Shown here one piece after another: positions 1,273-24,750 of a DNA stretch of 27,689 nucleotides. The stretch's first letter is position 1. Every line of letters starts with the position of its first letter. A program made the translations under genes and the position numbers. The stretch is from an uncultured delta proteobacterium (GTDB lineage: Bacteria; Desulfobacterota; Binatia; Bin18), in NCBI GenBank assembly GCA_963733195.1, contig CAVTCR010000072.1:1-27689 (forward strand), written 5' to 3'. The notes below the pieces were generated by a model. The model searched no databases and had not been told where the DNA came from. It worked only from the letters and a program-made list of their open reading frames with translations.

Positions 1273-3579
1273 ATGCGTATTGCAATGATCGTCGGCACAT
1301 TCGGCAAAATTTCCGAGAAGTTTGTTTTGGATCAGATCGCCGGCCTGATCGATCTCGGGCATGAGGTTGAAATTTTCGCCCGAAGTGTGGCGAACGAAGC
1401 CGTCGTGCATCCGGACGTGGTTCGCTACGGTCTTCGTGAAAAATTGCACGTCCTGGGGATTCCGTCCGGCGGCAGCTGGCGTTACATACTGAGAGCTCTC
1501 ATCGTGGCCGTTACGGTGATTCCCCCATCACCCCATTCTCGTCTTCAAAATGATCTTCAGCTATTGGGATTGGGATGCATTGTTCTTGCTGGCAAAGCTA
1601 CACGACCGAAAGTTCGACCTAGTTTTCGCTCAATTCGGGCCGAACGGAGAATTGGCCGCTCGACTCAAAAAGGCGGGAATGCGTTGGCCTCTTTTGACGA
1701 TTTTCCGCGGATACGACATCCGCCAGGCAGTCCAGCGCGGTGCTAAGAACTATTCGAGTCTTTTCAGGGTTGGGGACCTTTTTCTCGGGGTGTCGCAAGA
1801 CATTGTTGCACAGTTGTGCCGATTGGGGGTTGCCGCTGAAAGAATACGGCACCTTCCGGGCGGCGTGGATTCGACAAGTTTCATCCTTCATCCGACAGAA
1901 AGCCGTGGGAGCCGTCGCAACGCTTGGTGCTCCTGACAGTCGCTCGCCTTCATCAAATCAAGGGTCTAGCGTACGGAATCCGGGCCTTTAAAGCGCTCGT
2001 GGAGCGGAACCATGACCTCAACTTGGAATACCGGCTGGTGGGCGCGGGACCGCAGGAAAAAGAGCTGCGACAGTTGGTTGGCGACCTTGGGTTGGAAAAG
2101 GAAGTCCTTTTCTTGGGACCCTTCGCTGAGGATCAGGTGGCTTCGCAATACCGGCAGGCCCATCTCTTCATGCTACCGAGCGTCGCCGAAGGGTTACCGG
2201 TGGTGGCGCAGGAGGCGATGGCCTCCGAACTGCCCGTTGTAGCCACTGTCGTTGGTGGCGTAGGTGAATTGCTAGTCCACGGAGAAACTGGATTGTTGGT
2301 GCCACCAAAAGACGCTCAAGCGCTGGCCGATGGGCTTCAGCAGCTAATCGACTCGAGGGACACGTGGCAGGAACTGGGACAGCGTGGGCGCCGGCTGGTT
2401 GCTTCCAAGTACGAGATCAAGCAGCAGAACCGCGAACTCGAACAGATTTGCTTGCGGCTTGTGGCACACGCGCGGAACAAAATTCCGGTCGAAAGCGTCA
2501 AAAACTGCCGCGCTGGAATGGTTACAGCTATCATACCCGTCCGCAATCGGTCCGATGAACTGGCCGGATGCTTGTCCGGACTGCTGTCGCAGTGGCGGCA
2601 TTTTCCCTTGCAGGTCATAGTGGTCGACGATGCAAGCACCGATGATGGAACGCGGAACCTGGCCGCCCTCCACCCGCAGGTCACTTACGTTCGAACGGAC
2701 GTGCCGCGAGGGTCGGCGTTCGCCAAAAATCTCGGATTATCACTCGCCGAGGGTGAGTTCGTACTGTTTCTGGATTCCGACGTGACGTTCCTCTCCAACA
2801 CCACGCTTCAGACAATGGTTGCCACGATGAGCGACGATCTCCAATGCGGGCAGGTCGGCGGCGAAGCGATCGTCGATTGCGCCGAAAAAGTGAAATTCAT
2901 CTTCGGCCGGCATATCGACAAGAAAACGGGAATGAGCCGAATCCGGTTCATCCCCGCCGAACAGGCCGGATCCCGCCGATTCAGATGCGATTACGTGCCG
3001 ACGAGCAACTGCATGGTGCGGCGCGATGTCGCTTTGCACGTGTGCGGTTTCGATGACGCTTATTCCAGTGTGGGCGAGGACAAGGACTTCGGATACCGGG
3101 TGAAACAGCTTGGCTTACGAAGTTATGTTCTTTCGGACAGCGCAGTGTGGCATCATTTTTCCACAACCGGCCGCACCGACTCAGGATTGCGCAAACAGTT
3201 TCGCACGCAGATCCGTTTCATCTTGCGGCACTTCGGTCTGTCCGGAGTGGTAAAGATGTTGTCCGGCATTTTCCTGGAAGCTGTGTTCGGCCGAACCCGG
3301 GCAGGCAATGAAAATTCGCGACCCGGATGTTCAGCGCTTTCAAAAGTACTATCGAGAGACGCTGCTTCAACTGAAGCCGGCGCGCAACCTGATCGATACA
3401 ATTTGGCAAAACGTCTATCACGGCGGGCTTTTTCTCTCAGCCGTGCTCTGGAATGTGTCGAAAACACGAAGACTACGACCGTGTGGAAGCATTCATTTCG
3501 ACTTTCAAGGGCGGAATTCCTCCGGAACCGATTCTCAAATCCGAAATCCGCAGTCGTAAGTCCGAAATCCCGCCGCTAA
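1273..3579 (+). CDS. GT4 (WcaL-like) glycosyltransferase apparently fused to a GT2 domain; several frameshifts
   Basis: The N-terminus MRIAMIVGTFGKISEKFVLDQIAGL is WcaL-like. GT4 motifs are LTVARLHQIKG and EGLPVVAQEAMA. GT2 motifs are AIIPVRN, VIVVDDASTD, LFLDSD, GFDD and EDKDFGYR. Confidence 0.8.
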
Positions 3580-3858: not shown

Positions 3859-5898
3859 TTATTCTCCACTTGGCCGCACGGCAGTCACGGTGACCTCGAT
3901 GCTGTGGACTGCGGTACTGTCTCCCATATCTGCCTTGCGGCCAGGGTTCAGTACATTCACATTTGCTCGTGTATTCTCACGATTCGGCCACCGGCCTTTG
4001 TGCGACAACGCGACGCCACGCGGGATGTCGGTGGAGAGCGTCACGTGCATACGTAGTTGTCCAGTCTCGTTGGACAGTAAGACTTCCTCTCCTTCGCTCA
4101 GGCCACGTTCAGCGGCATCCAACGGATGAATGGCAACCGTGGCCGGTCCGATGCGTGTAGCAACTTTTTCGACATTGGCAAAACTATCGTTCAAGAGCCA
4201 CGGCGAGGCCGGTGATAAGAGGCGGAGACGGTCTGCGCCGGGCCTCGGATCAGCTAGTGGAAGTGGCACGCGTGAATGTCCATCTGCTTCGGCACGCGCT
4301 GAGGTAATCTCAATGCGTCCACTAGGAGTAGGGAAGGTGCGGTCGGCAAACTGCATAACTGGCTCTGGAGAAACAAAGACCGTGCCTTTTGCTGCCAGCG
4401 AGGAAAACGTTTCTCCAATGCCCATCCGCTCCAACAAGGTTGCCATGATGGTGGCGTCGCTCTCATACAATTCCGGTTCTGTGTAGCCCATAGCGCGAGC
4501 CAGACGACGAAAAATTTCCATATTGGATAAAGCTTCGCCAGGAGGTTCAGTTACTTTTACTTGGGCGGAGAGCGTTAAATTGAAATACGCCATCACTAGA
4601 TCATCGAATTCTAAAAAGCTTGCGGCTGGGAGGACAATATCCGCAAAGTTCGTTGTATCTGTGGCAAACAAATCAACGGCGACAGTGAAGAGGTCTTCAC
4701 GCCGTAACGCTGCGTGTAATCGTGCTTGTTGGGGATTCGAGGCTGCTGGATTGATATTCCAACACATCAACGCCCGCGAGCGCGTCGGATTTTCCAGACA
4801 GTCGACCAGATCCATATGACTGAGCGGTGGCGGAATGTTGGCTGCGAGCTGCGGAGCCACCAGGTATTCCAGATCGAGCTTACGCTCGCCAAAGCCATTG
4901 AGATAGAGAAACCCCGCACCGGGTTTGCCGATGTTGCCGGTAACAGCGGGCAAAAGGCCACACGCGCGCATGACATTGCCGCCGTGCGGCTGGCGTTGCA
5001 GCGATTGTCCGAGCCACAAGAGCGAAGGATCCTTGGCCATACAGGCGTGCGGCTTCTTCAATCAGTGTGCTGGCACGCCAGTCGTCGCTTCTCCCCAGGC
5101 TGGTGTGCAATCCCGCAGCATCGGCTCAAGTTCTTCCCACCCAACAGTGTGTGATGCGATGAAATCGCGATTGATGCGGCCGTCGCGCCAAAGAACATGT
5201 AACAGCGCAAAGGCTAACGCCGCGTCACTGCCCGGAAAGGGTTGGAGATGCAAATCAGCAGCCTGCGCCGTCGGCGTACGCACGGGGTCGATGACGATTA
5301 CTTTACCAGGGGCTTCTCGCAACCAGTGTTCATGCGCATGTGGTGCTGAGGCCGAGGGATTCGCTCCCCACACCATGATGCAGGCGGCGTCTCGCGCGGT
5401 ACGGGGATCAAAGCCCACCAGCGGAGTGCCGTACAGATACGTCAACGCTACCTGTCCAGCTTTATTACAGATGGTGTCAGGATCGACTTCGGTTGCGCCC
5501 AAGCGGAAGAAAAAGCGCAGAGGAAACAGATAGGCAAGTAGAGAAATCGTGCCAGTGTAGTGAGCATTCAAGATTGTCTGCGCACCACTAGTTGCAACGA
5601 TCTGCTTGAACCGCTCGGCAATCGTCGTCAGCGCCGTCTCCCACGACACTGGTTCGAACTGGCCTGCACCTTTGGGGCCGATGCGTCGCAGCGGGTGGGT
5701 GAGCCGTACTTTGGGATCGAGCCATTCGCGATTATACGCGATCGAACATTTGGCGCAGAGTTTGCCGCGATTGATTGGATGGGCTGGATCGCCCCGGACC
5801 TGGGTAATTTTCTCACCCTGTTTAACGACGACGATCCCGCACGTGTCATAGCAATCGCGGGGACAGGTGGTACGGATATGCTCTGTGCTGGTTGTCAT
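3859..5898 (-). CDS. Molybdopterin (bis-MGD) oxidoreductase with an N-terminal 4Fe-4S motif; two compensating frameshifts near 5030-5065
   Basis: Motifs TCPRDCYDTC...KLC, RLTHPLRR, IMVWGANP, DPVRTPTA, PGSDAALA, ADIVLPAASFLE and the C-terminal IHPLDAAERGL. No Tat signal is visible. Confidence 0.9.
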
Positions 5899-6493: not shown

Positions 6494-7063
6494 TTACTTG
6501 CGCAACTTGCGTACCGGATGGTCCGGCGGCAGCATGCAGAGGTTGTCACTCTCGATTTTCAGCGCGCAGTTGAACCGGGCACGAAAATTCTCCAACGCGA
6601 TGGCTGCGGTCAGCTCAACAATTTGTTCGCTAGTGAATAAAGACTGAATTTCCGCGAACACGGCATCGGACACATCGGCTGGCGTACGCGTCATCCCTTC
6701 TGCATAGCGCAGCACTGCCTTTTCACGGCCGTCGAAATGCGGGCTCGTCTCGAAAGCGGCCAGAGTCTCTAACTGCTCGTCGGTGATTCCGGCGTCTCTG
6801 CCTACGGCAGAGTTGATATCCACTCAAAAAGGACAGCCGACCATTTGCGCTGCGCGTACCGACACCATCGTCTTGAGACGGCCCTCGACGACAGTTGAGG
6901 CGCTGATCGCTTGTCCCATCTTTGCATGGGCAAGGAGGATCTCTGGTCGATGGGCCATGACCAGACTTGGCGTAATGACACGCCCGAAGAAGTCGAGGCT
7001 TCCCTGAAATACCGGTCGGACACTCTCGGGTGCGTTTTGTGGGTCGATTCCATTGATGCGCAT
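6494..7063 (-). CDS. AhpD/carboxymuconolactone-decarboxylase-family protein, probable selenoprotein (189 aa, CPFU motif, Sec80)
   Basis: ORFs 6824..7063 and 6494..6823 are in one frame, separated only by TGA (6824-6826) at the second Cys position of the AhpD CxxC motif (VGCPF*VDINSAVG). RBS AGGAGG lies upstream and a hairpin follows the TGA. Confidence 0.85.
6796..6812 (-). promoter_or_regulatory. Candidate bacterial SECIS hairpin
   Basis: The mRNA reads UGA-GUGGAUAUCAA-CUCUGCC-GUA-GGCAGAG. This is a perfect 7-bp stem beginning 11 nt after the UGA, with a G-led apical loop. Confidence 0.7.
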
Positions 7064-7191
7064 TTTTATAACACCTCCTAGCGGCGGTATTTCGCCGCTC
7101 TGTTCATGCTGTCATTCTCATATACGTTTACTGTTATGCGAGACTATGTTGCATTGAGCATCGCGCGTAGCGAATGCGCTCCGACGCATAG

Positions 7192-7667: not shown

Positions 7668-8492
7668 TCAACTCTGCATGAAGCCGTTCAACTCCGAGGC
7701 CGACGAGGAACGGTCAAGGTAGCCGAAGGTACCCTTTTCCTGGACCTCGCGGGCGGCTTCGAGCAGGTTACTCATCGCCGCGTGGTACAGTGAGGTGGCG
7801 AGGCTGATCCGCCTGACGCCGGCCGCCTCGAGCTCGGCGACGGAGAATGACTTGCCCCTGATGCCGACCATGAAGTTGACCGGCTTCGACACTGCGGCGC
7901 AGACCGCACGCACAGATGCAAGGTCGGGTAGGCCTGGTGCAAACAGCACATCCGCTCCTGCCCTCTCGAACGCCTGCAAACGTTTGATCGTGTCCTCCAA
8001 ATCCGGGTTGCCGCGTAGGAAGTTCTCCGAGCGGGCGGTCAAGGTAAATGAGAAGGGGAGTGCCCGCGCCGCCTGCGCGGCCGCCTCCACGCGCTCGGTC
8101 GCGTGACCGATGTCGTAGAGCGGCTTGTTCTTGTCACCGGTCGCATCCTCAATCGAGCCGCCGACCAATCCTGCCTCGGCGGCGAGACGAATCGTTTCCG
8201 CCACGGTCGCCGGCGCATCACCGAAGCCCTTCTCCAGATCGGCAGACACGGGTAGGTCGGTCGCCACGACAATGGCGCGTGCCAGCGCTAGTGCCTCCTC
8301 ACGTGTCACCTTGCCGTCGCGGCGGCCGAGGACGCCGGCGGAGGCGCCGCTCGACGTCGCCAGTGCCTGGAAGCCGAGCCCGGCGAGTATGCGTGCGGAG
8401 CCCGCGTCCCACGGGTTTGGGATCACGAATACGCCCGGCCTCTGATGCAACGCGTTGAAGCGGGTGGCCTTGTCACTCTGGGTTGTGGTCAT
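7668..8492 (-). CDS. Isocitrate lyase/PEP mutase family protein
   Basis: PNPWDAGSA, ALATSS, LPVSADLEKGFG, GGSIED, AGADVLFAPG. Confidence 0.92.
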   Translation of the reverse strand: MTTTQSDKATRFNALHQRPGVFVIPNPWDAGSARILAGLGFQALATSSGASAGVLGRRDGKVTREEALALARAIVVATDLPVSADLEKGFGDAPATVAETIRLAAEAGLVGGSIEDATGDKNKPLYDIGHATERVEAAAQAARALPFSFTLTARSENFLRGNPDLEDTIKRLQAFERAGADVLFAPGLPDLASVRAVCAAVSKPVNFMVGIRGKSFSVAELEAAGVRRISLATSLYHAAMSNLLEAAREVQEKGTFGYLDRSSSASELNGFMQS

Positions 8493-8690: not shown

Positions 8691-10186
8691 ATGAGCAGAG
8701 TTTCGTCCTCTCTGGTTTCCGCGTTGGTCGCGCTCGATACCGCCTCGCCTGATCCGCTTCATCGACAACTGTACGGCAAGCTCCGGAATGCAATTCTCAC
8801 AGGGCGGATTTCTCCGGGAGCGCAGATTCCATCCTCGCGAGACTTGGCGCGAGAGCTTGGCGTGGCCCGTAACACCGTACTCAACGCTGTCGAGCAACTG
8901 ATCGCCGAAGGCTATCTACAGGGAGAACCCGGTTCGGGCACCATGTACATCGAACTCTGCCAGACGATACGCTCCACGTTCCACGTCTACAGGCTGCTAC
9001 CGCGCAAAGAGCACGAAAGCACTTTCCGCTTTCTCAGCGCAGTAGAGGCCTGGCGAATCTATCAACTCTTCTCCCCTCGGCGGGACGGCCGAAGCCCTTT
9101 CATCTAGCCGTCCCGGCAGTGGACGCTTTCCCTTTTAATCTCTGGGCGAAGCTCGTACAAAAACAATGGCGGCGACACCCAAGCGATCTCCTCGGTTTTG
9201 GGGAACCTGCCGGGTACCTGCCGCTCCGCCGCGCCATCGCAGCGTACCTGACCGGCGCCCGTGCCGTTCGCTGTGAGGCTGAACAAGTTGTCATCGTCTC
9301 TGGAGCGCAACAGGCGTTGGACCTCGCGTCCCGCTTGTTGATCGATCCCGGAGATCCCGTCTGGGTTGAAGAACCCGGCTATCCTGGGATACGCGCTACC
9401 TTGCTTGCCGCCGGCGCGCATCTCATCCCTGTGCCGGTAGACGAAGAAGGACTCAATGTGCAGGCTGGAATCACACGTTCCGCGCATGCTCGCCTGGTCT
9501 ATGTGACACCTTCACATCAGTTTCCGTTAGGTTACACCATGACGCTGGCGCGACGCCTGGAATTGCTCAACTGGTCTCAGCGAGCGCACGCCTGGATTCT
9601 GGAAGATGATTACGATAGCGAGTATCGCTACACGAGTCGCCCAATCCCAGCCTTGCAAGGGCTCGCCGCTCAGGAACAGGTCATCTATGTGGGTACTTTT
9701 AGTAAAGTACTCTTTCCTTCACTCAGACTGGGGTATCTGGTCGTCCCGTCCGCGCTTGTCGAGGTCTTTACCGCGGCGCGAACGGTTGCCGCTGGGTACC
9801 CACCCCTTATCGAACAAGCAGTGCTGACAGAGTTTATCACCGAGGGCCATTTCGGGCGCCATATCCGACGCATGCGCGCCCTTTATCAAGAACGCCGGGC
9901 GGTGTTGCTGGACGAAGCGCAGCGTGAGTTGACCGGACTTCTTGAGGTCCAGGTCTCAGACGCGGGGCTCCACGCGATAGGCTGGTTGCCCCAAGGGACA
10001 GACGACCGTTCGGCGGCGCGACTCGCCGCGGCAGAAGGAGTGGACACAGTCCCACTGTCGAGTTTCTATTGGGGACTAGGGAAACAGAGTGGTCTGGTGC
10101 TTGGATTTGCCGCATTCAGTGCGCCCGAGCTGCGCAGCGGAGCGCGAAAACTCGCTCGGGCTTTGGCTTTGTTGAAATCGCAATGA
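8691..10186 (+). CDS. MocR/GabR-family PLP-dependent GntR regulator, frameshifted in the linker
   Basis: GntR HTH: LRNAILTG...PSSRDLARELGVARNTV. Aminotransferase-like domain: YVTPSHQFPLG, ILEDDYDSEY, GTFSKVLFPSLRLGY. Confidence 0.93.
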
Positions 10187-11752: not shown

Positions 11753-12602
11753 ATGAACACAAGCCTAATTCAAGACACCACAATAGAACTGCAATACGTT
11801 GAAGCCCCACTCAATTATCTGAGTGAGGAGACGACAAAAGCCCGCCGCCTACATGTACACGCCGCCGCCAGGCATTCCGAGCCGGTCAGGACAGTACATT
11901 GCTCATACGCTGCCAATCTTTAACGGTCGCGTGTTGCAGGATCACCTCTCGTTGGACCGACACGGCTTTCAGTTGATCCGCCGCAAGACTCAGGTGAAGA
12001 ATTTTTACGATGCCCAGGAAGTGAAAGCGATCTACTATCCCGAGGTCGAGTACCTGGTGAGGAAATTCACCGGTGCGGCGAGAGTCATTGCTTTCGATCA
12101 TAACGTACGCTGCGGAACGCTGGCAAAACAAGGTGAGGCCGGCATACGTGAACCGGTGAAAACCGTGCACAACGATTACACGCTCAAATCCGGCCCGCAG
12201 CGCGTACGTGACTTGCTCCCACCCGAGGAAGCCGAAGAGCTGCTCCAGCATCGGTTTGCGGTGATCAACGTCTGGCGGCCCATTCGTGGACCTGTGCAAG
12301 AGTCACCATTGGCGGTGTGTGACGCCCGCAGCATCACCCAGGAAGACTTCATCCCGACTGATCTGGTGTACCGTGACCGTAAGGGCGAGATCTATTTGGT
12401 GGCGTTCAGTCCTAGTCACCGCTGGTTCTACTTCCCACACATGCAGACCAATGAGGCGCTGCTGCTCAAATGCTACGACTCGATGGACGACGGACGCGCA
12501 CGGTTTACCGCCCACTCCGCGTTTGCTGATCCGACCAGTCCGCCTGATGCGCCGGCGCGGGAGAGTATTGAAGTACGTACGCTGGCGTTCTTTGCTTCGT
12601 AG
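11753..12602 (+). CDS. CmcJ/NvfI/AsaB-family Fe(II)/2-oxoglutarate oxidoreductase, one frameshift near 11840
   Basis: SLDRHGFQL, FDHNVR, VHNDYT (HxD), INVWRPI, PLAVCDARS, HSAF, RESIEVRTLAF. Confidence 0.88.
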
Positions 12603-12629
12603 CCTAACCAGTGTCAAAGGAGGGACATC

Positions 12630-13353
12630 ATGGCTGAAACATCACCACGCCCGGTTGCCGTCGTCGTCGGAGTGGGTGCAGGATTAGGCGCGGCCTTAGC
12701 ACGCCGCTTTGCGTCGGGGTACACAGTGGCGCTCCTCGCGCGTGGAGAAGAGTATTTGACCTACGCTTGCCAAAGAGATCGAGGGCGCGGGTGGACGTGC
12801 ACTGGTAGTGCCCACCGACGTGAGTCAAGAAAAACAGATTGAGGCGGCCTTCACTACTATCCGTCGTGAATTGGGCGCTCCGGAGGTGTTGCTCTATAAC
12901 GCGGCAATGCGTCCGTTTGGCCGGCTGCTGGAGACCAAGGCCAGCACGTTTGAGAACACCTGGCGTGTCTGCGTCTTTGGTGCGTTCCTTTGCGCTCAGC
13001 ATGTCGTACCCGACATGCTGACGAAAGGTAAAGGTAGCGTCCTGTTTACAGGTGCCACGGCGGGCGTCAAGCCGTTCCCGACGTCGGCGGCGTTTGGCCC
13101 AGCGAAGTTTGCCATGCGCGGACTGGCGCAGGTGTTGGCGCGCGACCTTGGCCCACGAGGGATTCACGTGGCTTATATCAACGTGGACGGACCGATCGAC
13201 ATGCCGTTTATTCGCCAGCGGTTTCCTGACATGAAAGATGAAGACATGCTCAAACCGTCAGCAATTGCCGAGACCTATTGGCACCTCGCTCACCAAGATC
13301 CTAGTGCGTGGACGCAAGAACTTGATGTGAGACCATTCAAGGAGAAGTTCTAA
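12630..13353 (+). CDS. Short-chain dehydrogenase/reductase, frameshifted
   Basis: VVGVGAGLGAALARRF, LLYNAA, FTGATA, AAFGPAKFA, GIHVAYINVDG. Confidence 0.88.
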
Positions 13354-17539: not shown

Positions 17540-17851
17540 TTACAGCCCGATCATCTTCTTGTAGATCTTGAGCGCCTGCGCACGAGTAGACGTGCGCGCT
17601 ACGGCTTGCTTCCAGATAGGATAACGGTCTTTCATACACGTTGCGCAGGGGCGGTAACCGGCAGCAATAGCTGTAGCCTCATCGGCAAAGAACACGCGGT
17701 GTTTGACGTAATAACCTTTGGCGATCCAGAGCAACGCACTGCGACAATCCATGCGGCCGTAACCCTTACTGCCCCGGTGACCACCGAAAGTGCCTGGGGT
17801 ACTACTTTCATAAAACTTTCCGTCTGGCCCTATAAGTTTGTAGAGTTTCAT
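17540..17851 (-). CDS. Stand-alone Ada metal-binding-domain protein
   Basis: YGRMDC...RVFFADEATAIAAGYRPCATC. Confidence 0.85.
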   Translation of the reverse strand: MKLYKLIGPDGKFYESSTPGTFGGHRGSKGYGRMDCRSALLWIAKGYYVKHRVFFADEATAIAAGYRPCATCMKDRYPIWKQAVARTSTRAQALKIYKKMIGL

Positions 17852-17864
17852 TAACCCTCGACTC

Positions 17865-18375
17865 TCACCCTATAGTGACACTCACACCTTCGTGTTGTAG
17901 CAGCCAACGTTTACGCTCCAGGCCACCAGCGTAGCCAGTCAGTGCCCCATTTGCGCCCACCAACCGATGGCAGGGAACGACAATAGCGATCGGATTCAGC
18001 CCATTCGTCATGCCGACAGCACGATAGGCAGTAGGTTTCCCCAACTTTGCTGCCAACTCGCCATACGTGAGCACTGTTCCTGGCGGGATCGTGCGTAACG
18101 CCGACCACACCTGCTGCTGAAACGCAGTGCCTCCAGTGTTGACGGGAATACGGCTGATACAGGCAATGATCACCCGCGAGATAGGCGCGGATCAGACTGC
18201 TGAATCCTTGTGGGTCGATAGTATCTTGCAACTGAAAATCAGGGTCACGCCGTCTCAGCAGCGTCATCATGCGGTTTTCGTAGCCGGCGTAGTCAAGAGC
18301 GCAGAGCCGCTCGCCGTCAGAGACCAGTAGAATCTTCCCGAGTGCCGAATCGATTCTGTCGATGAGGAGTTCCAT
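17865..18375 (-). CDS. ogt: Methylated-DNA-protein-cysteine methyltransferase, one frameshift near 18170
   Basis: [59 protein letters not shown]. Confidence 0.93.
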
Positions 18376-18554
18376 AGCGCCCTTCCTTATCATTCGTCCT
18401 CTGATTCTTTAAGAGAGACACCACAGGAAGGGAAATGTGAAAAGAGAAGGACTACGATCTCATAGGAACATCTGCGCCCTCACCTGTAAAAATCTGGATG
18501 TATCTGTCGGGTATGTCAGCGCAAGTGCGATTCAGGGCTGACCACCCACCAATG

Positions 18555-19487
18555 TCATTCTGAGGTCGCAGACCGAAGAGTCTCTTTGTTCGGTGCCTTG
18601 ACTGATTCCGGGCGGTTCAACACCGCATTGAAGACGGTCGCTGGCACACGGAGACGGTCGTCATCTGCGTAGAGCGTACGCAATTCGGTGAATGCAGTAT
18701 CGGGCGCTCGTGTGATCGCGGCAAGCCGGTCGAAAAACGTAAGCTGCTCATCAGTGAGCGACGTATCCGGTTGGGGCATGGCGCCCCAGACGTCCCACGG
18801 CAGCATCTCCATTTTGTTGAGTGCTGCGACATCACGCACCAGATTCCCGGCAATAAACCACAGTCCGCGTAGGTTCGCGAAGGCGATGCCGAACTTCGCC
18901 GGCTCGACCTGACCTGCGCGGCATTGTGCCCACGCCTCGCCCGCGATCACGAAGCGATCGCGCGGCACATCAAGGATGTCGAAATCGGGTTTGAGTTTCT
19001 CCTGCCATATGTCGTCTAGCTGCGAGTCGACTAAAACCCACCGCGCTTCTGTAGCATTCCAGTATTCGCACACCCAGTGATCCTCCAAGTATGGGGGATT
19101 GAAATACGCGCCGAAACCGCATCGAGATCTCGCTGGAACACCTTTGGCCCGCAACATCGCGACTAGAAAACGCGTAAAGTTATGACAGCGGCAAGCCAGG
19201 CGCTTATTGACCGGTCGAGCGACCGACAGCGACTGGTCATCGAGAGCAAGGAGGCGATCCAACATTTGCTCCATGGAGCGAAGATGAATTTCATTCTGGC
19301 GTTGATCTGGAATCGCGTAGCCGTAGAAACTAGCCGCCACTACATCATAGATCCCTAGTCCCTGAATAAGGCGCACTAACTCTCTCACGTCGTTTGGCAA
19401 CTCATCAAACAGTGACGCGTGGCGTCCCGCTGAGGTCAGTATTGACGGTTGCGTATAGAAGTCGAGAAGATGTTGTTGGGTCGTCAT
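18555..19487 (-). CDS. Transglutaminase-like cysteine-protease-fold protein
   Basis: Triad motifs [30 protein letters not shown] and WVLVD. Confidence 0.85.
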
Positions 19488-19833
19488 GATGGTCTGTTCC
19501 TTTCGTCGTCACTCTCAACGCGATGAACCGACGCATGTGTCGTGCTACGAGGTATGACAGCGACACTATGCACAAGATCACCAATAGCACCCGTAGGTGC
19601 GTTGCCGTTGACAGCGACATCCCGACACCGGTTCCCATCGCCACATAGGCCGCCAAGCAGGCGGGGCACTTGGGCAACAGCGCCAGGACGGCGCCCGGCA
19701 CTATCCATCCGGCGATGTCGAGGCAACGCCGAGCGAACGTCAGCGTCTGCGGATCGTCATCTGCGGTCTGCGCTGTGAGCGTCTCGCGGTTTGCGCCATG
19801 TGCAGCGACTGCGCAGCAACAATGAGCATTCAC
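19405..19833 (-). CDS. Cys-rich two-TM membrane protein (CxxC); the true 3' end may be 19484 if frameshifted
   Basis: The GTG start overlaps the DUF899 stop (GTGA). It has N-terminal [18 protein letters not shown] and two hydrophobic segments. Confidence 0.7.
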
Positions 19834-20621
19834 GAGTGGTCCTCCCGCGAACAGCACGAGGAGTCCGAGTTTTTAGGAGGCGCGTACAACGCCTTCGGGT
19901 CGACGACATAGTCGTCACCATAGCGATCGTGGTGGCGAACCCAGGCCATCTTAAAGGCCAGGCTGTCTTCGTCGCGGCCCTTCGGCACGAGGTCGAGGTA
20001 GTTGTACGCGCCAATCAACATGTCGACCCCGCGAGCGTAACTGGAATAGGTGTGGAAGATGTCGCCGGTCGCGTCCTTGTAAAATACGCTGGTGCCGGGG
20101 GCTTCGCCCTCGTCCTGAGATTCGCGTATTTGGTAGTTGTAGTATGTCTTGCCCTTTGCCACATCGTCCTTGGTGAACGACACGTGATAGTCGCTGTTAA
20201 AGTCGCAGCCGTATGACGACACCCACTTAAAGCGCCAACCCATGCGCTTCTTAAAGGCTTCGATCTCGGGGAAGGGCGCTCGCGAGACCGCCATCAGCGT
20301 CACGTCACGGTGCGCGAGGTGCACGACGCTACCGTCGATATGATCGGACACCAGCGAGCAGCTCGGGCAACCGTGCTCCCACCCTGGACCAAACATGAAG
20401 TGATAAATGATCAATTGTCCGCGTCCGTCGAACAGGTCAGCGAGCGTTTCTTTGCCGTTTGGCCCGTCGAATACGTAGTTCTTCTCAACCTTTACCCAGG
20501 GCAGCTCGCGACGCTCGGCACTCAGTTGATCGCGCAACCGGGTGAGTTCTTTTTCCTTCTGCAAGTGTCGCTTCCGTGCAGCGATCCACTCCTCTTGTGA
20601 TACGATACGGTTGTGTTGCAT
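19830..20621 (-). CDS. DUF899 thioredoxin-like protein
   Basis: [67 protein letters not shown]. Confidence 0.93.
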
Positions 20622-21908: not shown

Positions 21909-23567
21909 ATGAAGCAACCCGAAGATGTCCAGCTCAGCCGGGAGGACGGCGAAGCGTTGCTCGCCCGGCTCGAAGCCAACACGCTGACCGCGGACGATCG
22001 GCGCGTGTTGGGGAAAGTGCTGACCTCTTACTTTTGGTTGTTGTTTGCGCTGCGGGAAGCGAAGCTGAGTCTCAAGCGAATCAAGGCGCTGGTGTTTGGC
22101 GAGAAGCCCAAGCCACCCAAGCCGCCGGCAGCGGGCGGGACGGCGGGCGGCGGGAGTGCGGGCGAGAACGCAACGCAGACCAGCACATCACAGGGAGTGC
22201 CATCCCTCCACTTCCCCATCGTCGCCGGAGAAGAAGCCGCCGCCTGGGCATGGGCGGCACGGCGCGGAGGTCTATCGGGCGGCGCAGACGGTGGAGTGTC
22301 GGCATGAGGAATTAGCCGTGGGTGAGCGATGTCCGGCGTGTGGTCGTGGGAACCTTGTATCGCTTACCGCCGGGCGTGGAGATGCGGCTCGATGGCAACG
22401 CGTTATTGTCGGCGGTGCGCTATGAGCTGGAGAAGTTACGCTGCTCGGCCTGTGGGCAAATCTTTACCGCATCGGTGCCGGCAGCAGCAGGGACCGAGAA
22501 GTATACGGCACGGGCGCGGGCGGTGTTAGCGCTGGCGCGCTACTACTTAGGGCTTGCCGTGGCATCGGCTCGAAGGATTCCAAGCGTTAGTCGGCGTGCC
22601 GGTGCCCGATGCGACACAATGGGATCAGGGCGAGATCGTGGGCGACTGTACCCATCCCATCTTCAAGTGGTTGGAGAAGCTGGCGGCGCAAGGCGAAGTG
22701 ATCTTTCAAGATGATACGCCCGGGCGGGTGTTAACGTTAATTGAGGAAAACCAGCAGGCGCGAGCGAAGGCCCGGGCGCAAGGCAAAGCGAAGCCGGACA
22801 CACGGACGGGCATGCAAACGACGGCGTTGATCGTGCAGGTGGGGGAGCGGCGCATTTGCTTGTATTATACGGGGCGGCGGCATGCGGGCGAGAATCTGGA
22901 GGCGCTCTTAACGAAACGGGAACCGGGACGCGAAAAACCGTTGGTGATGTCCGATGCCTTGAGCCAGCAACAATGCTGAGGAAGACGAACGCTCATCCGC
23001 TGTCATTGTCTGGCCCATGGGCGGCGCAGTTCACCGAGTTGGCCGAGGATTTCCCTGCGGAGAGTGCGGTTGTGGTGGAGGCGCTCAAGCTGATGTACGA
23101 CCATGAAGAGCAGGCGCGGGACCAAGGGCTCAGTGCGCAGGAGCGATTGGTCTACCATCAAACGTATAGTGAGCCCGTATTGACGACACTCAAGACGTGG
23201 CTGGAGCAGCAAACGGCAGAGCGTTGGTAGAACCCAATAGTAGTTTGGGCAAAGCGATCGCGTACTGTTGGAGCATTGGGAGACGCTGACGCGAGTCGTC
23301 AAAGTGCCGGGCGCGCCACTCGATAATAATGTCGCCGAGCGCGCGTTAAAACTGGCGATTCGCCAGCGCAAGAACTCCTTGTTCTATGCCACCGAGCATA
23401 GTGCCTACATTGCCAGTATCCTCACCAGTGTGATTGCCACCTGTGTACAGGCCGGGGTCAATGCCTTGGACTATCTGGTCGCGGTCCAGGAACACCGCCA
23501 GGAGGTGTTTGCCAATCCCAGTGCCTGGCTGCCGTGGAATTATGAGGCGGCCCTCGTGCCGTCGTAA
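21909..23567 (+). CDS. tnpC: IS66-family transposase TnpC, multiple frameshifts
   Basis: Coiled-coil ending ALVFG, GHGRHG, zinc finger CPACG..RCSACG, FQDDT, MSDAL, CLAHGRR, PLDNNVAERALK..RKNSLFY, WLPWNY. Confidence 0.9.
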
Positions 23568-23914
23568 CGGATGGGCCGCCAGTCGGGGGCGAGTTGGGCG
23601 CGGTCAGGATGGCCGTTGCCTAAGAGCACGTTCAGCTCCCACGCGGAGAGGGTCACGCTCTGGGTGCTGGCGGTCGGCCACCAGGAAAAACGCCCGTGGG
23701 ACAGACGTTTCGTGCAGAGCCAAAACCCTTGGCCATCGTAGGCCAAGAGCTTAAGCGTCGTGCCAGTGCGGTTGCGAAAGACATAGACCGTGCCGCCCAA
23801 GGGATTCTCATGCAACAGCCTGGCGACAGAGCGCCGCGAGCCCATCGATACCCTTCGGAAGTCGACAGGCTGCACGGCCAGAAAGATGCGACTCTGGGGC
23901 GTGAGTTGGAGCAT
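23540..23914 (-). CDS. tnpB: IS66 accessory protein TnpB
   Basis: MLQLTPQSRIFLAVQPVDFR...VYVFRNR..LKLLAYDGQGFWLCTKRLSHGRFSW. There are internal compensating frameshifts. Confidence 0.9.
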   Translation of the reverse strand: MLQLTPQSRIFLAVQPVDFRRVSMGSRRSVARLLHENPLGGTVYVFRNRTGTTLKLLAYDGQGFWLCTKRLSHGRFSWWPTASTQSVTLSAWELNVLLGNGHPDRAQLAPDWRPIRYDGTRAAS

Positions 23915-24315
23915 CAGTGGGAGTCCAGGAAGGTTTGGAGCAAGGGGACGAGGCGGAGAGGCGTCACTGTACGTGATGCGCAGCCGGGTGCCATCGGGCC
24001 GTTGGATTTCGACTTCCGTCGCGGGCGTCCGCCAGGCCGGCCGCGACTTCGACAAATGCGGGACGTGGGGAGAGGGCAGTGGCGCGGGCGTGCCATTCAG
24101 GGCCTCACGCCGTCGTTTGAGCGCATGGGGCGTGAGGCCCAGTTGGTTGGCGACCCGCGAGACGGAGAAGGTGGCCGTGAGCGCCACGGCGCTGCGCCCA
24201 CAACTCCGTGAGGAATGCGTCCCCGGGGAGTGCGGCGGCTTTGCCGCCACTGCGCAAAGTGGTGGGTTAAGTGCATAAGGGCTTCTTCGGCCTGGGCTGG
24301 CGATAATGGCTGCAT
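23914..24315 (-). CDS. tnpA: IS66 accessory protein TnpA-like, frameshifted
   Basis: FAQWRQSRRTPRGRIP, VSRVANQLGL (HTH-like), VEIQRPDGTRLRI and LLQTFL. TGATG couples it to tnpB. Confidence 0.75.
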
Positions 24316-24521
24316 ACCAAGCTCCCATCGTCGAACAAATTGTGGGAGCAACAATAGACGCCTGCGATGCTGCGCTGTCACGCAGGCTCACCGGACGACA
24401 CTACTCTGTGCCAGACGGGCGAAACTGCCGAAGACGATCGCTCTCACTTGAAGTGTGGAACGTGCAAAGATGGGCGAAGCGCCTTTCAGTGAAAGAGGGC
24501 AAGCTTGCTCCCCGGAAAGAC

Positions 24522-24750
24522 AAATCAATGCTACTGATCTAGCAGAAAGATGGTTAGAAAGGTCCGGGTCAATAACCAAGGTGGCTGGGAACCTGCGCGC
24601 CTTCAAGCGGCTGGTCAGTGGAACAATTTGGATAGTGGTCAGTCTGGCTGTGAGCTGAGGGTTCTGCAGAATGAGAGCAGGACGGAGCCCGGCTTGCTCG
24701 TGACCATCGGCAGCCGGAATCTGGACCCAGTAGATATCACCGGGGCTCAT
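24522..24750 (-). pseudogene. mazF: MazF/PemK toxin, N-terminal fragment (76 aa)
   Basis: GDIYWV...GHEQAGLRPALILQN...IVPLTS...NHLSARSVALI, after which the similarity breaks off. Confidence 0.9.

Follow-up and report, generated by a model that had tools for sequence, protein, structure and literature searches.

An AhpD-like gene interrupted by a single TGA codon

The window, i.e. the whole 27,689-nt stretch of DNA analysed here, carries on its minus strand a complete gene of the AhpD/CMD family (YciW-related) at positions 7063..6494. The gene starts with an ATG (7063..7061), which is preceded at a distance of 8 nt by the Shine-Dalgarno-like sequence AGGAGGUG, read directly from the sequence (7072..7079, minus strand), and it ends with a TAA (6496..6494). 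When TGA is translated as selenocysteine (U), the frame encodes 189 residues before the stop. Its sole internal TGA is codon 80 (6826..6824, minus strand), found in the context AAQMVGCPF-U-VDINSAVGRDAG. With genetic code table 11, the same region appears as two abutting ORFs of the same frame, one of 79 aa (6824..7063) and one of 109 aa with a GTG start (6494..6823). The original prediction, which gave no strand, had proposed that a single reading frame is broken by one TGA at the position of the second Cys of the AhpD CxxC motif, and the translation (GCPF-U-VDINSAVGR around 6826..6824) confirmed this. Residues C77-P-F-U80 constitute a CxxU redox motif (6824..6835, minus strand).

Gene callers routinely divide genes of this kind into two. 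A search of the protein database gave 597 matches, and among the best 120 listed, 118 are proteins of 103–114 aa that cover only the C-terminal 54–58% of the query and are named 'hypothetical protein' or 'alkylhydroperoxidase family enzyme'. All six fragments that we inspected start with V/M-DINSAVG, that is, at the codon following the TGA. Moreover, an exhaustive search of representative sequences revealed N-terminal fragments that end at residue 79 (P0165, P0193, P0209 and P0251). The idea that standard gene callers split a 189-aa gene is thus borne out by the closest database entries. More distant full-length representatives (28–47% identity) carry a Cys at this column, and both C77 and C80 are nearly invariant in an alignment of 39 sequences.

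The joined protein belongs to the AhpD/CMD superfamily

Neither half of the protein alone gives any Pfam match, whereas the joined protein matches the CMD family PF02627 with 38.9 bits (cutoff 23, E = 8.8e-10) and also an AhpD core domain model. The best-scoring curated model is NCBIfam NF053654 (E = 7.2e-44), which aligns its positions 3–176 of 179 with residues 2–175. However, the score of 149.7 bits lies below the equivalog cutoff of 310 bits, as do those of all 14 other members of the clade that were tested (96.1–147.2 bits). The protein also falls below the cutoff of TIGR01926, the 'peroxidase-related enzyme' model (37.8 versus 81.8 bits, E = 1.7e-09), to which it aligns over residues 10–171.

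AlphaFold2, supplied with the 39-sequence alignment, predicted an all-helical structure with a pLDDT of 94.5 and a pTM of 0.88, and the modelled fold is that of the AhpD/CMD superfamily. C77 and U80 lie at the start of the predicted helix 78–90. Foldseek matched the model with a TM-score of 0.83 to Bmp8, to AhpD of Deinococcus radiodurans and to several peroxidase-related proteins with an AhpD core. The canonical AhpD motif CxxCxxxH is incomplete, as Asn84 takes the place of the His found in PA0269 (CVNMH); relatives have N, G or H at this position. Asp82 is invariant (77 of 77 rows) and Glu114 is nearly so in the 39 sequences; both residues are candidates for an acid/base role in a protein without the canonical His.

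TGA is maintained at codon 80 in related loci

To examine the codon column, we scanned genome contigs with two peptide patterns, one of which is encoded by the hairpin described below, and obtained 269 matches confirmed by tblastn, the best 80 of which were kept. In these 80 loci the aligned column holds either TGA (77 loci) or a Cys codon (three loci), which is precisely what the original prediction expected of a tblastn alignment of homologues. The Cys codons are TGT in L060 and TGC in L066 and L067, three loci labelled Solirubrobacterales/Solirubrobacteraceae. Among the best 80 of the 269 loci, TGA is also present in 44 of the 47 that lack the hairpin-encoded pattern, and therefore the excess of TGA is not an artefact of the search. 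The tblastn alignments run across the TGA and the gene is collinear with the best 80 related loci; the UGA persists in relatives with as little as 38% identity and alternates solely with Cys codons. These relatives, labelled as soil and groundwater metagenome-assembled genomes (MAGs), bear the labels Binataceae, 'Deltaproteobacteria', Methylomirabilota, Dehalococcoidia/Chloroflexota, Gemmatimonadota, Acidobacteriota, Verrucomicrobiota and Myxococcota, among others.

The gene shares 89% identity with the related locus L001 across the TGA, with neither a frameshift nor a further stop in 189 codons. Compared with L001, the N-terminal half shows 28 synonymous and five non-synonymous codon changes, and the C-terminal half 35 synonymous and 12 non-synonymous ones, a pattern indicative of purifying selection on both halves.

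Two TGA-containing paralogues, all with the hairpin, were noted in each of five MAGs (L008 and L039, L006 and L041, L009 and L035, L025 and L040, L011 and L019). The pairs L008/L039 and L006/L041, each from a single contig series, are strongly diverged (44–46% versus 76–80% identity to the query). Another copy, L044:2933-3277, matches residues 54–166 only, with a TAG located three codons before its TGA; judged by these features, it is probably a decayed paralogue.

These comparisons bear on the possibility that the TGA arose through faulty sequencing or assembly, or through a recent nonsense mutation in a TGC or TGT codon, in which case the gene would encode an ordinary Cys enzyme or be a fresh pseudogene. 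The window does contain other lesions, with indels in a neighbouring molybdenum oxidoreductase gene and several genes that appear split between frames. However, a TGA in the same column in 77 of the best 80 independent loci from many MAGs, an intact downstream hairpin that is under selection, and an 89% match to L001 over 189 codons free of frameshifts and further stops make this explanation extremely improbable. Furthermore, the one lesion that was checked is a pair of indels and not a substitution.

That lesion lies in the oxidoreductase gene (domains Fe4S4, Molybdopterin and Molydop_binding), which we had considered as a second selenoprotein candidate (5898..3859, minus strand, TGA at 5064..5062) and rejected. 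In comparison with the intact homologue of L001, it has a 1-nt deletion and a 1-nt insertion around 5066 and 5026, and these −1/+1 changes about 40 nt apart create the TGA; reading the shifted frame between them restores the usual LIEEAARLY motif. The earlier assertion that the other visible lesions of the window are indels thus holds for this gene, the lesion that was compared with L001. Further apparent breaks, recognized by ORF layout and partial Pfam matches, are located at 1550-3579 and 12286-13353 on the plus strand and at 17540-18393 and 18555-19857 on the minus strand. The broken genes include those of a glycosyltransferase, an Ada/Ogt-type methyltransferase, a transglutaminase-like protein and a short-chain dehydrogenase without its N-terminus. 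Multiple frame breaks of this kind suggest an indel-prone assembly or decaying genes.

Position 80 would not be selenocysteine if the organism had reassigned TGA to a standard amino acid, namely Trp or Gly as in genetic codes 4 and 25. In favour of this reading, two close full-length proteins among the best 120 of the 597 database matches were deposited with W at this column; a W in these entries means that the gene caller read through the TGA. However, of the 21 other ORFs of the window with Pfam support, 10 terminate in TGA, and some of these, such as 7668..8492 and 19830..20621, match their Pfam profile end to end. In addition, the alternative residue of the homologues is Cys and neither Trp nor Gly, the related loci span many unrelated phyla, and a recoded genome would need no conserved hairpin at a fixed distance from the codon. 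Reassignment can practically be dismissed.

A conserved SECIS-type hairpin follows the TGA codon

On the minus strand, the UGA is followed by 11 nt (6823..6813), the 5' arm CUCUGCC (6812..6806), the loop GUA (6805..6803) and the 3' arm GGCAGAG (6802..6796). The resulting SECIS-type hairpin (6812..6796) is the perfect 7-bp stem, 11 nt past the UGA, that had been noticed at the outset, and its 17 nt fold with a minimum free energy (MFE) of −10.0 kcal/mol. In Escherichia coli, fdhF requires its minimal upper stem-loop to be spaced 11 nt from the UGA. The bacterial SECIS (bSECIS) model set out in a 2026 review (PMC13188914, legend of Figure 2) specifies an apical loop of 3–9 nt, an upper stem of 4–16 bp, a G within the first two loop nucleotides (in most cases one that precedes a G or U), a UGA-to-loop distance of 16–37 nt and an MFE of at most −7.5 kcal/mol. 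The hairpin, with a loop of 3 nt that begins with G-U, a stem of 7 bp, 18 nt between UGA and loop and −10.0 kcal/mol, lies within all of these ranges, although its loop has the minimum length that the model allows. The proposed match to the geometry of bacterial SECIS elements therefore agrees with the published model as given there.

In the single sequence, however, the hairpin alone is weak evidence, and the chance level is not negligible. The 66-nt fold has a z-score of −1.34, and 18 of 200 shuffled sequences fold equally well. In a simple scan of both strands of the window, a hairpin compliant with the model follows 26 of 877 TGA trinucleotides. Thirty-five in-frame TGAs of the window are flanked on both sides by 50 or more open codons, and four of these are followed by a model hairpin; the hairpin after codon 80 is the strongest of the four, and it alone lies within a recognisable gene. 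Searching the whole window with Rfam revealed no family at gathering scores and, near the hairpin, only a chance snoRNA match (E = 7.7). It is because of the comparative data, namely the codon column, covariation and the synonymous sites, that the case stands far above chance.

For covariation, we aligned the hairpin of the window with those of 76 TGA loci (76 distinct rows); L037, in which the contig ends early, was left out and the three Cys loci were kept apart. The seven pairs are formed in 95.9% of 532 cells, compared with 33.5–60.3% in controls with a slid 3' arm. Both sides have changed at three of the seven pairs (31 cells), with U-A replaced by G-C in 14 rows and C-G by U-A in 11. The covariation score of 0.216 compares with 0.089 ± 0.010 for shuffled alignments, none of which reached 0.216 in 500 trials, and RNAalifold found the same helix unaided. 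The G at the first loop base is invariant in the aligned relatives.

Synonymous sites were examined because the hairpin sits in conserved codons. The codons of the stem are frozen, with UCU used for Ser in 58 of 60 cases, GCC for Ala in 72 of 77, GGC for Gly in 70 of 71 and AGA for Arg in 56 of 60, whereas the Val codon of the loop is free (GUG 19, GUC 13, GUA 11 and GUU 11). Nearby four-fold codons show 1.8–2.0 bits, and at an upstream Arg column AGA appears in only 2 of 61 rows. Folding of the 17-mer gave a median MFE of −9.7 kcal/mol for the Sec rows (n = 78), 72 of which are at −7.5 kcal/mol or lower, versus −0.6 to −4.8 kcal/mol for the Cys forms (n = 3); by this folding, no hairpin is present in the three Cys-form loci. 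Taken together, the alignment indicates that the hairpin is maintained by compensatory changes and frozen synonymous codons. Although the sequence of the window permits the weaker lower stem that had also been suggested (GUGGAU/AUCAC), this stem is not conserved, being paired in 66.3% of cells. As a conserved element it was rejected: of its five pairs, 4-44 is unpaired in 39 of the 76 rows, 6-42 in 30 and 9-40 in 43.

The hairpin could also be viewed in the light of a true stop at codon 80. The locus would then produce two small proteins (79 and 109 aa), or the N-terminal piece only, and the hairpin would have another function, for example in attenuation or in coupling re-initiation at the GTG. 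Indeed, a GTG directly follows the TGA, and the 109-aa piece is called as a protein in public annotation. However, the start codon is not conserved after the TGA, since this position is GTG, GTA or GTC (Val), ATC, ATG, ATA or ATT, or CTG or CTC depending on the locus. Moreover, the break would interrupt the CxxC motif where a helix begins, within one compact domain that is modelled with a pLDDT of 94.5 as one chain; the Cys-form homologues are continuous, and the codon choice in the stem fits the SECIS model at the canonical spacing. A true stop is accordingly very improbable.

Selenocysteine machinery and integrity of the gene

No selA, selB or selD domain was detected in the 47 larger ORFs of the 27.7-kb window or in the eight proteins around the gene, and no tRNA gene was found in the window. 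Of the best 80 related loci, 60 were scanned with ARAGORN and none of these yielded a tRNA-Sec, a result that is uninformative. The absence of sel genes from the window, together with the damaged appearance of several neighbouring genes, would fit a genuine selenoprotein family whose member in this genome is a relic left after loss of the Sec machinery. However, a 27.7-kb window is too small to judge the absence of sel genes. Both halves of the gene and the hairpin are intact, and the codon changes relative to the nearest relative are mostly synonymous, which makes a relic improbable.

Genomic neighbourhood

The neighbours of the gene in the window, encoding a cupin, the molybdenum oxidoreductase, a glyoxalase-like protein and a PEP-mutase-like protein, are each found in only one to five related loci. 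A MocR-type regulator (GntR helix-turn-helix and aminotransferase-like domains) occurs within 4 kb in 10 of the best 80 loci, from several phyla (L006, L010, L019, L025, L037, L051, L062, L066, L067 and L074), and in the window at 8691-10186. In L019, which was looked at individually, it is transcribed divergently from the AhpD-like gene. The copy of the window appears to be broken between frames, with a GntR ORF at 8691-9107 and an aminotransferase ORF at 9119-10186 (plus strand).

A small membrane ORF, whose core comprises about 145 aa and gives weak, sub-cutoff matches to DUF4345/DUF6632, directly precedes the AhpD-like gene in 12 loci, or 13 when counted by tblastn (L031, L033–L035, L039–L041, L058, L060, L062, L066, L071 and L077). 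The distance from its end to the AhpD-like start ranges from −3 to 44 nt. This ORF is absent from the window. A similar domain is fused to the N-terminus of Cys-form representatives of about 350 aa (P0128, P0133, P0139 and P0141; BLASTP E = 1e-07). We draw no firm functional inference from the conserved neighbourhood.

At some distance from the gene, the window also carries IS66-family fragments (23268-24391), consisting of a DDE_Tnp_IS66 tail and a TnpB_IS66-like ORF, and an adjoining ORF for a PemK/MazF-type toxin (24388-24750).

Selenocysteine at codon 80 and its possible role

We regard the comparative evidence for selenocysteine at codon 80 as decisive. The region 7063..6494 (minus strand) is thus very probably one gene, encoding a thiol/selenol oxidoreductase of 189 residues (about 21 kDa) from the YciW/COG2128-like branch of the AhpD/CMD superfamily, in which UGA codon 80 specifies selenocysteine. 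By established selenocysteine biology, SelB in complex with GTP and Sec-tRNA(Sec) would bind the apical part of the hairpin while the UGA is in the ribosomal A site; this complex would then outcompete release factor 2 and deliver selenocysteine at the UGA. Recognition of the SECIS by SelB is specific to the lineage.

In AhpD of Mycobacterium tuberculosis, the second Cys is the attacking residue. From the fold and the motif, the selenolate of U80 may likewise be the attacking nucleophile, and C77 would resolve it through a selenenylsulfide. The enzyme would then reduce a peroxide, a disulfide, a partner of the peroxiredoxin type or some other small electrophile, and, as the family suggests, a cellular thiol system would re-reduce the oxidised enzyme.

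A broader proposal would place the protein in a distinct, uncurated YciW-like clade that is nearly exclusively of the Sec form, is spread over many soil and groundwater phyla and scores below every curated cutoff, with its NSAVGR segment determined by the SECIS no less than by the protein. The proposal also places the gene, in some lineages, in an operon with a small four-helix membrane protein, or has its Cys form fused to such a protein, and on these grounds the members might act in a membrane-linked selenol relay or as Bmp8-like small-molecule reductases, and not as classical AhpD proteins that recycle AhpC. Taken as a whole, this proposal is speculative and we consider it rather unlikely.

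The locus leaves unchanged what is known of selenocysteine decoding and of AhpD-like selenoproteins, and its main value lies in the repair of annotation, as no Pfam match is obtained unless the two ORFs are joined. Once the Sec codon is recognised, many MAGs of little-known soil lineages such as Binataceae regain a full redox enzyme, which implies that these lineages use selenium; our literature search found no paper joining 'Binatia' with 'selenocysteine'. The gene also provides a clean teaching case of an RNA element that limits codon choice inside a coding region.

Comparison with known systems

Among the solved structures, Bmp8, a tetrabromopyrrole debrominase (PDB 6ohi and 6ohj), is the best whole-chain match to the predicted model (TM-score 0.83 over 175–177 columns, 21–22% identity). 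Bmp8 acts by a thiol mechanism. It also matches in sequence over residues 9–170 (E = 1e-12), with its GCMYC aligned to GCPFU; however, Bmp8 is a Cys enzyme, whereas the protein of the window has a Sec. Nothing points specifically to dehalogenation, because 2prr, 6k40 and 2oyo match equally well (TM-score 0.83). Our literature search found no primary paper on Bmp8, and the analogy with a dehalogenase is based on PDB titles.

The PA0269-type AhpD of Pseudomonas aeruginosa (PDB 2ijc, 2o4d and 7xw1) is similar over residues 49–169 (E ∼1e-13), with GCAYC aligned to GCPFU and a Foldseek TMt of 0.88–0.93. These solved proteins have a Cys, and a His four residues past the second Cys, whereas the protein of the window has Sec and Asn84; the latter also possesses an additional N-terminal segment of about 50 residues.

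The closest resemblance is to the AhpD-like selenoproteins of the COG2128/YciW type, which share the CMD/AhpD domain, a Sec at the position of the second Cys, widespread Cys homologues and a bSECIS with a G in the apical loop just downstream of the UGA. As anticipated, CxxU proteins of this type are known from metagenomes: they have been on record since 2005, when 27 Sargasso Sea sequences became the first to be reported (PMC1088965), and the table for the GOS data lists 299 sequences of 'AhpD-like 1' (COG2128, CxxU), the fourth most numerous family, and 70 of 'AhpD-like 2' (pfam02627, CxxU) (PMC2398784). According to these two reports, they rank among the most abundant known prokaryotic selenoprotein families (PMC1088965, PMC2398784), and BSepDB has a page for the AhpD-like family (PMC13326102). 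As far as they are described in these sources, the published sets are mostly marine, whereas the relatives found here, compared with them by description, come from soil and groundwater MAGs. The review ties the AhpD-like family to TIGR01926 (PMC13188914), whereas the protein of the window remains below the cutoff of that model. It does align end to end with NF053654 ('GroundWater_YciW', YciW-related (seleno)protein), a family that is curated with both Sec and Cys forms. Judged by its scores, the gene is of a kind already known and is best described as a member of a sister clade of NF053654, and not of that equivalog itself.
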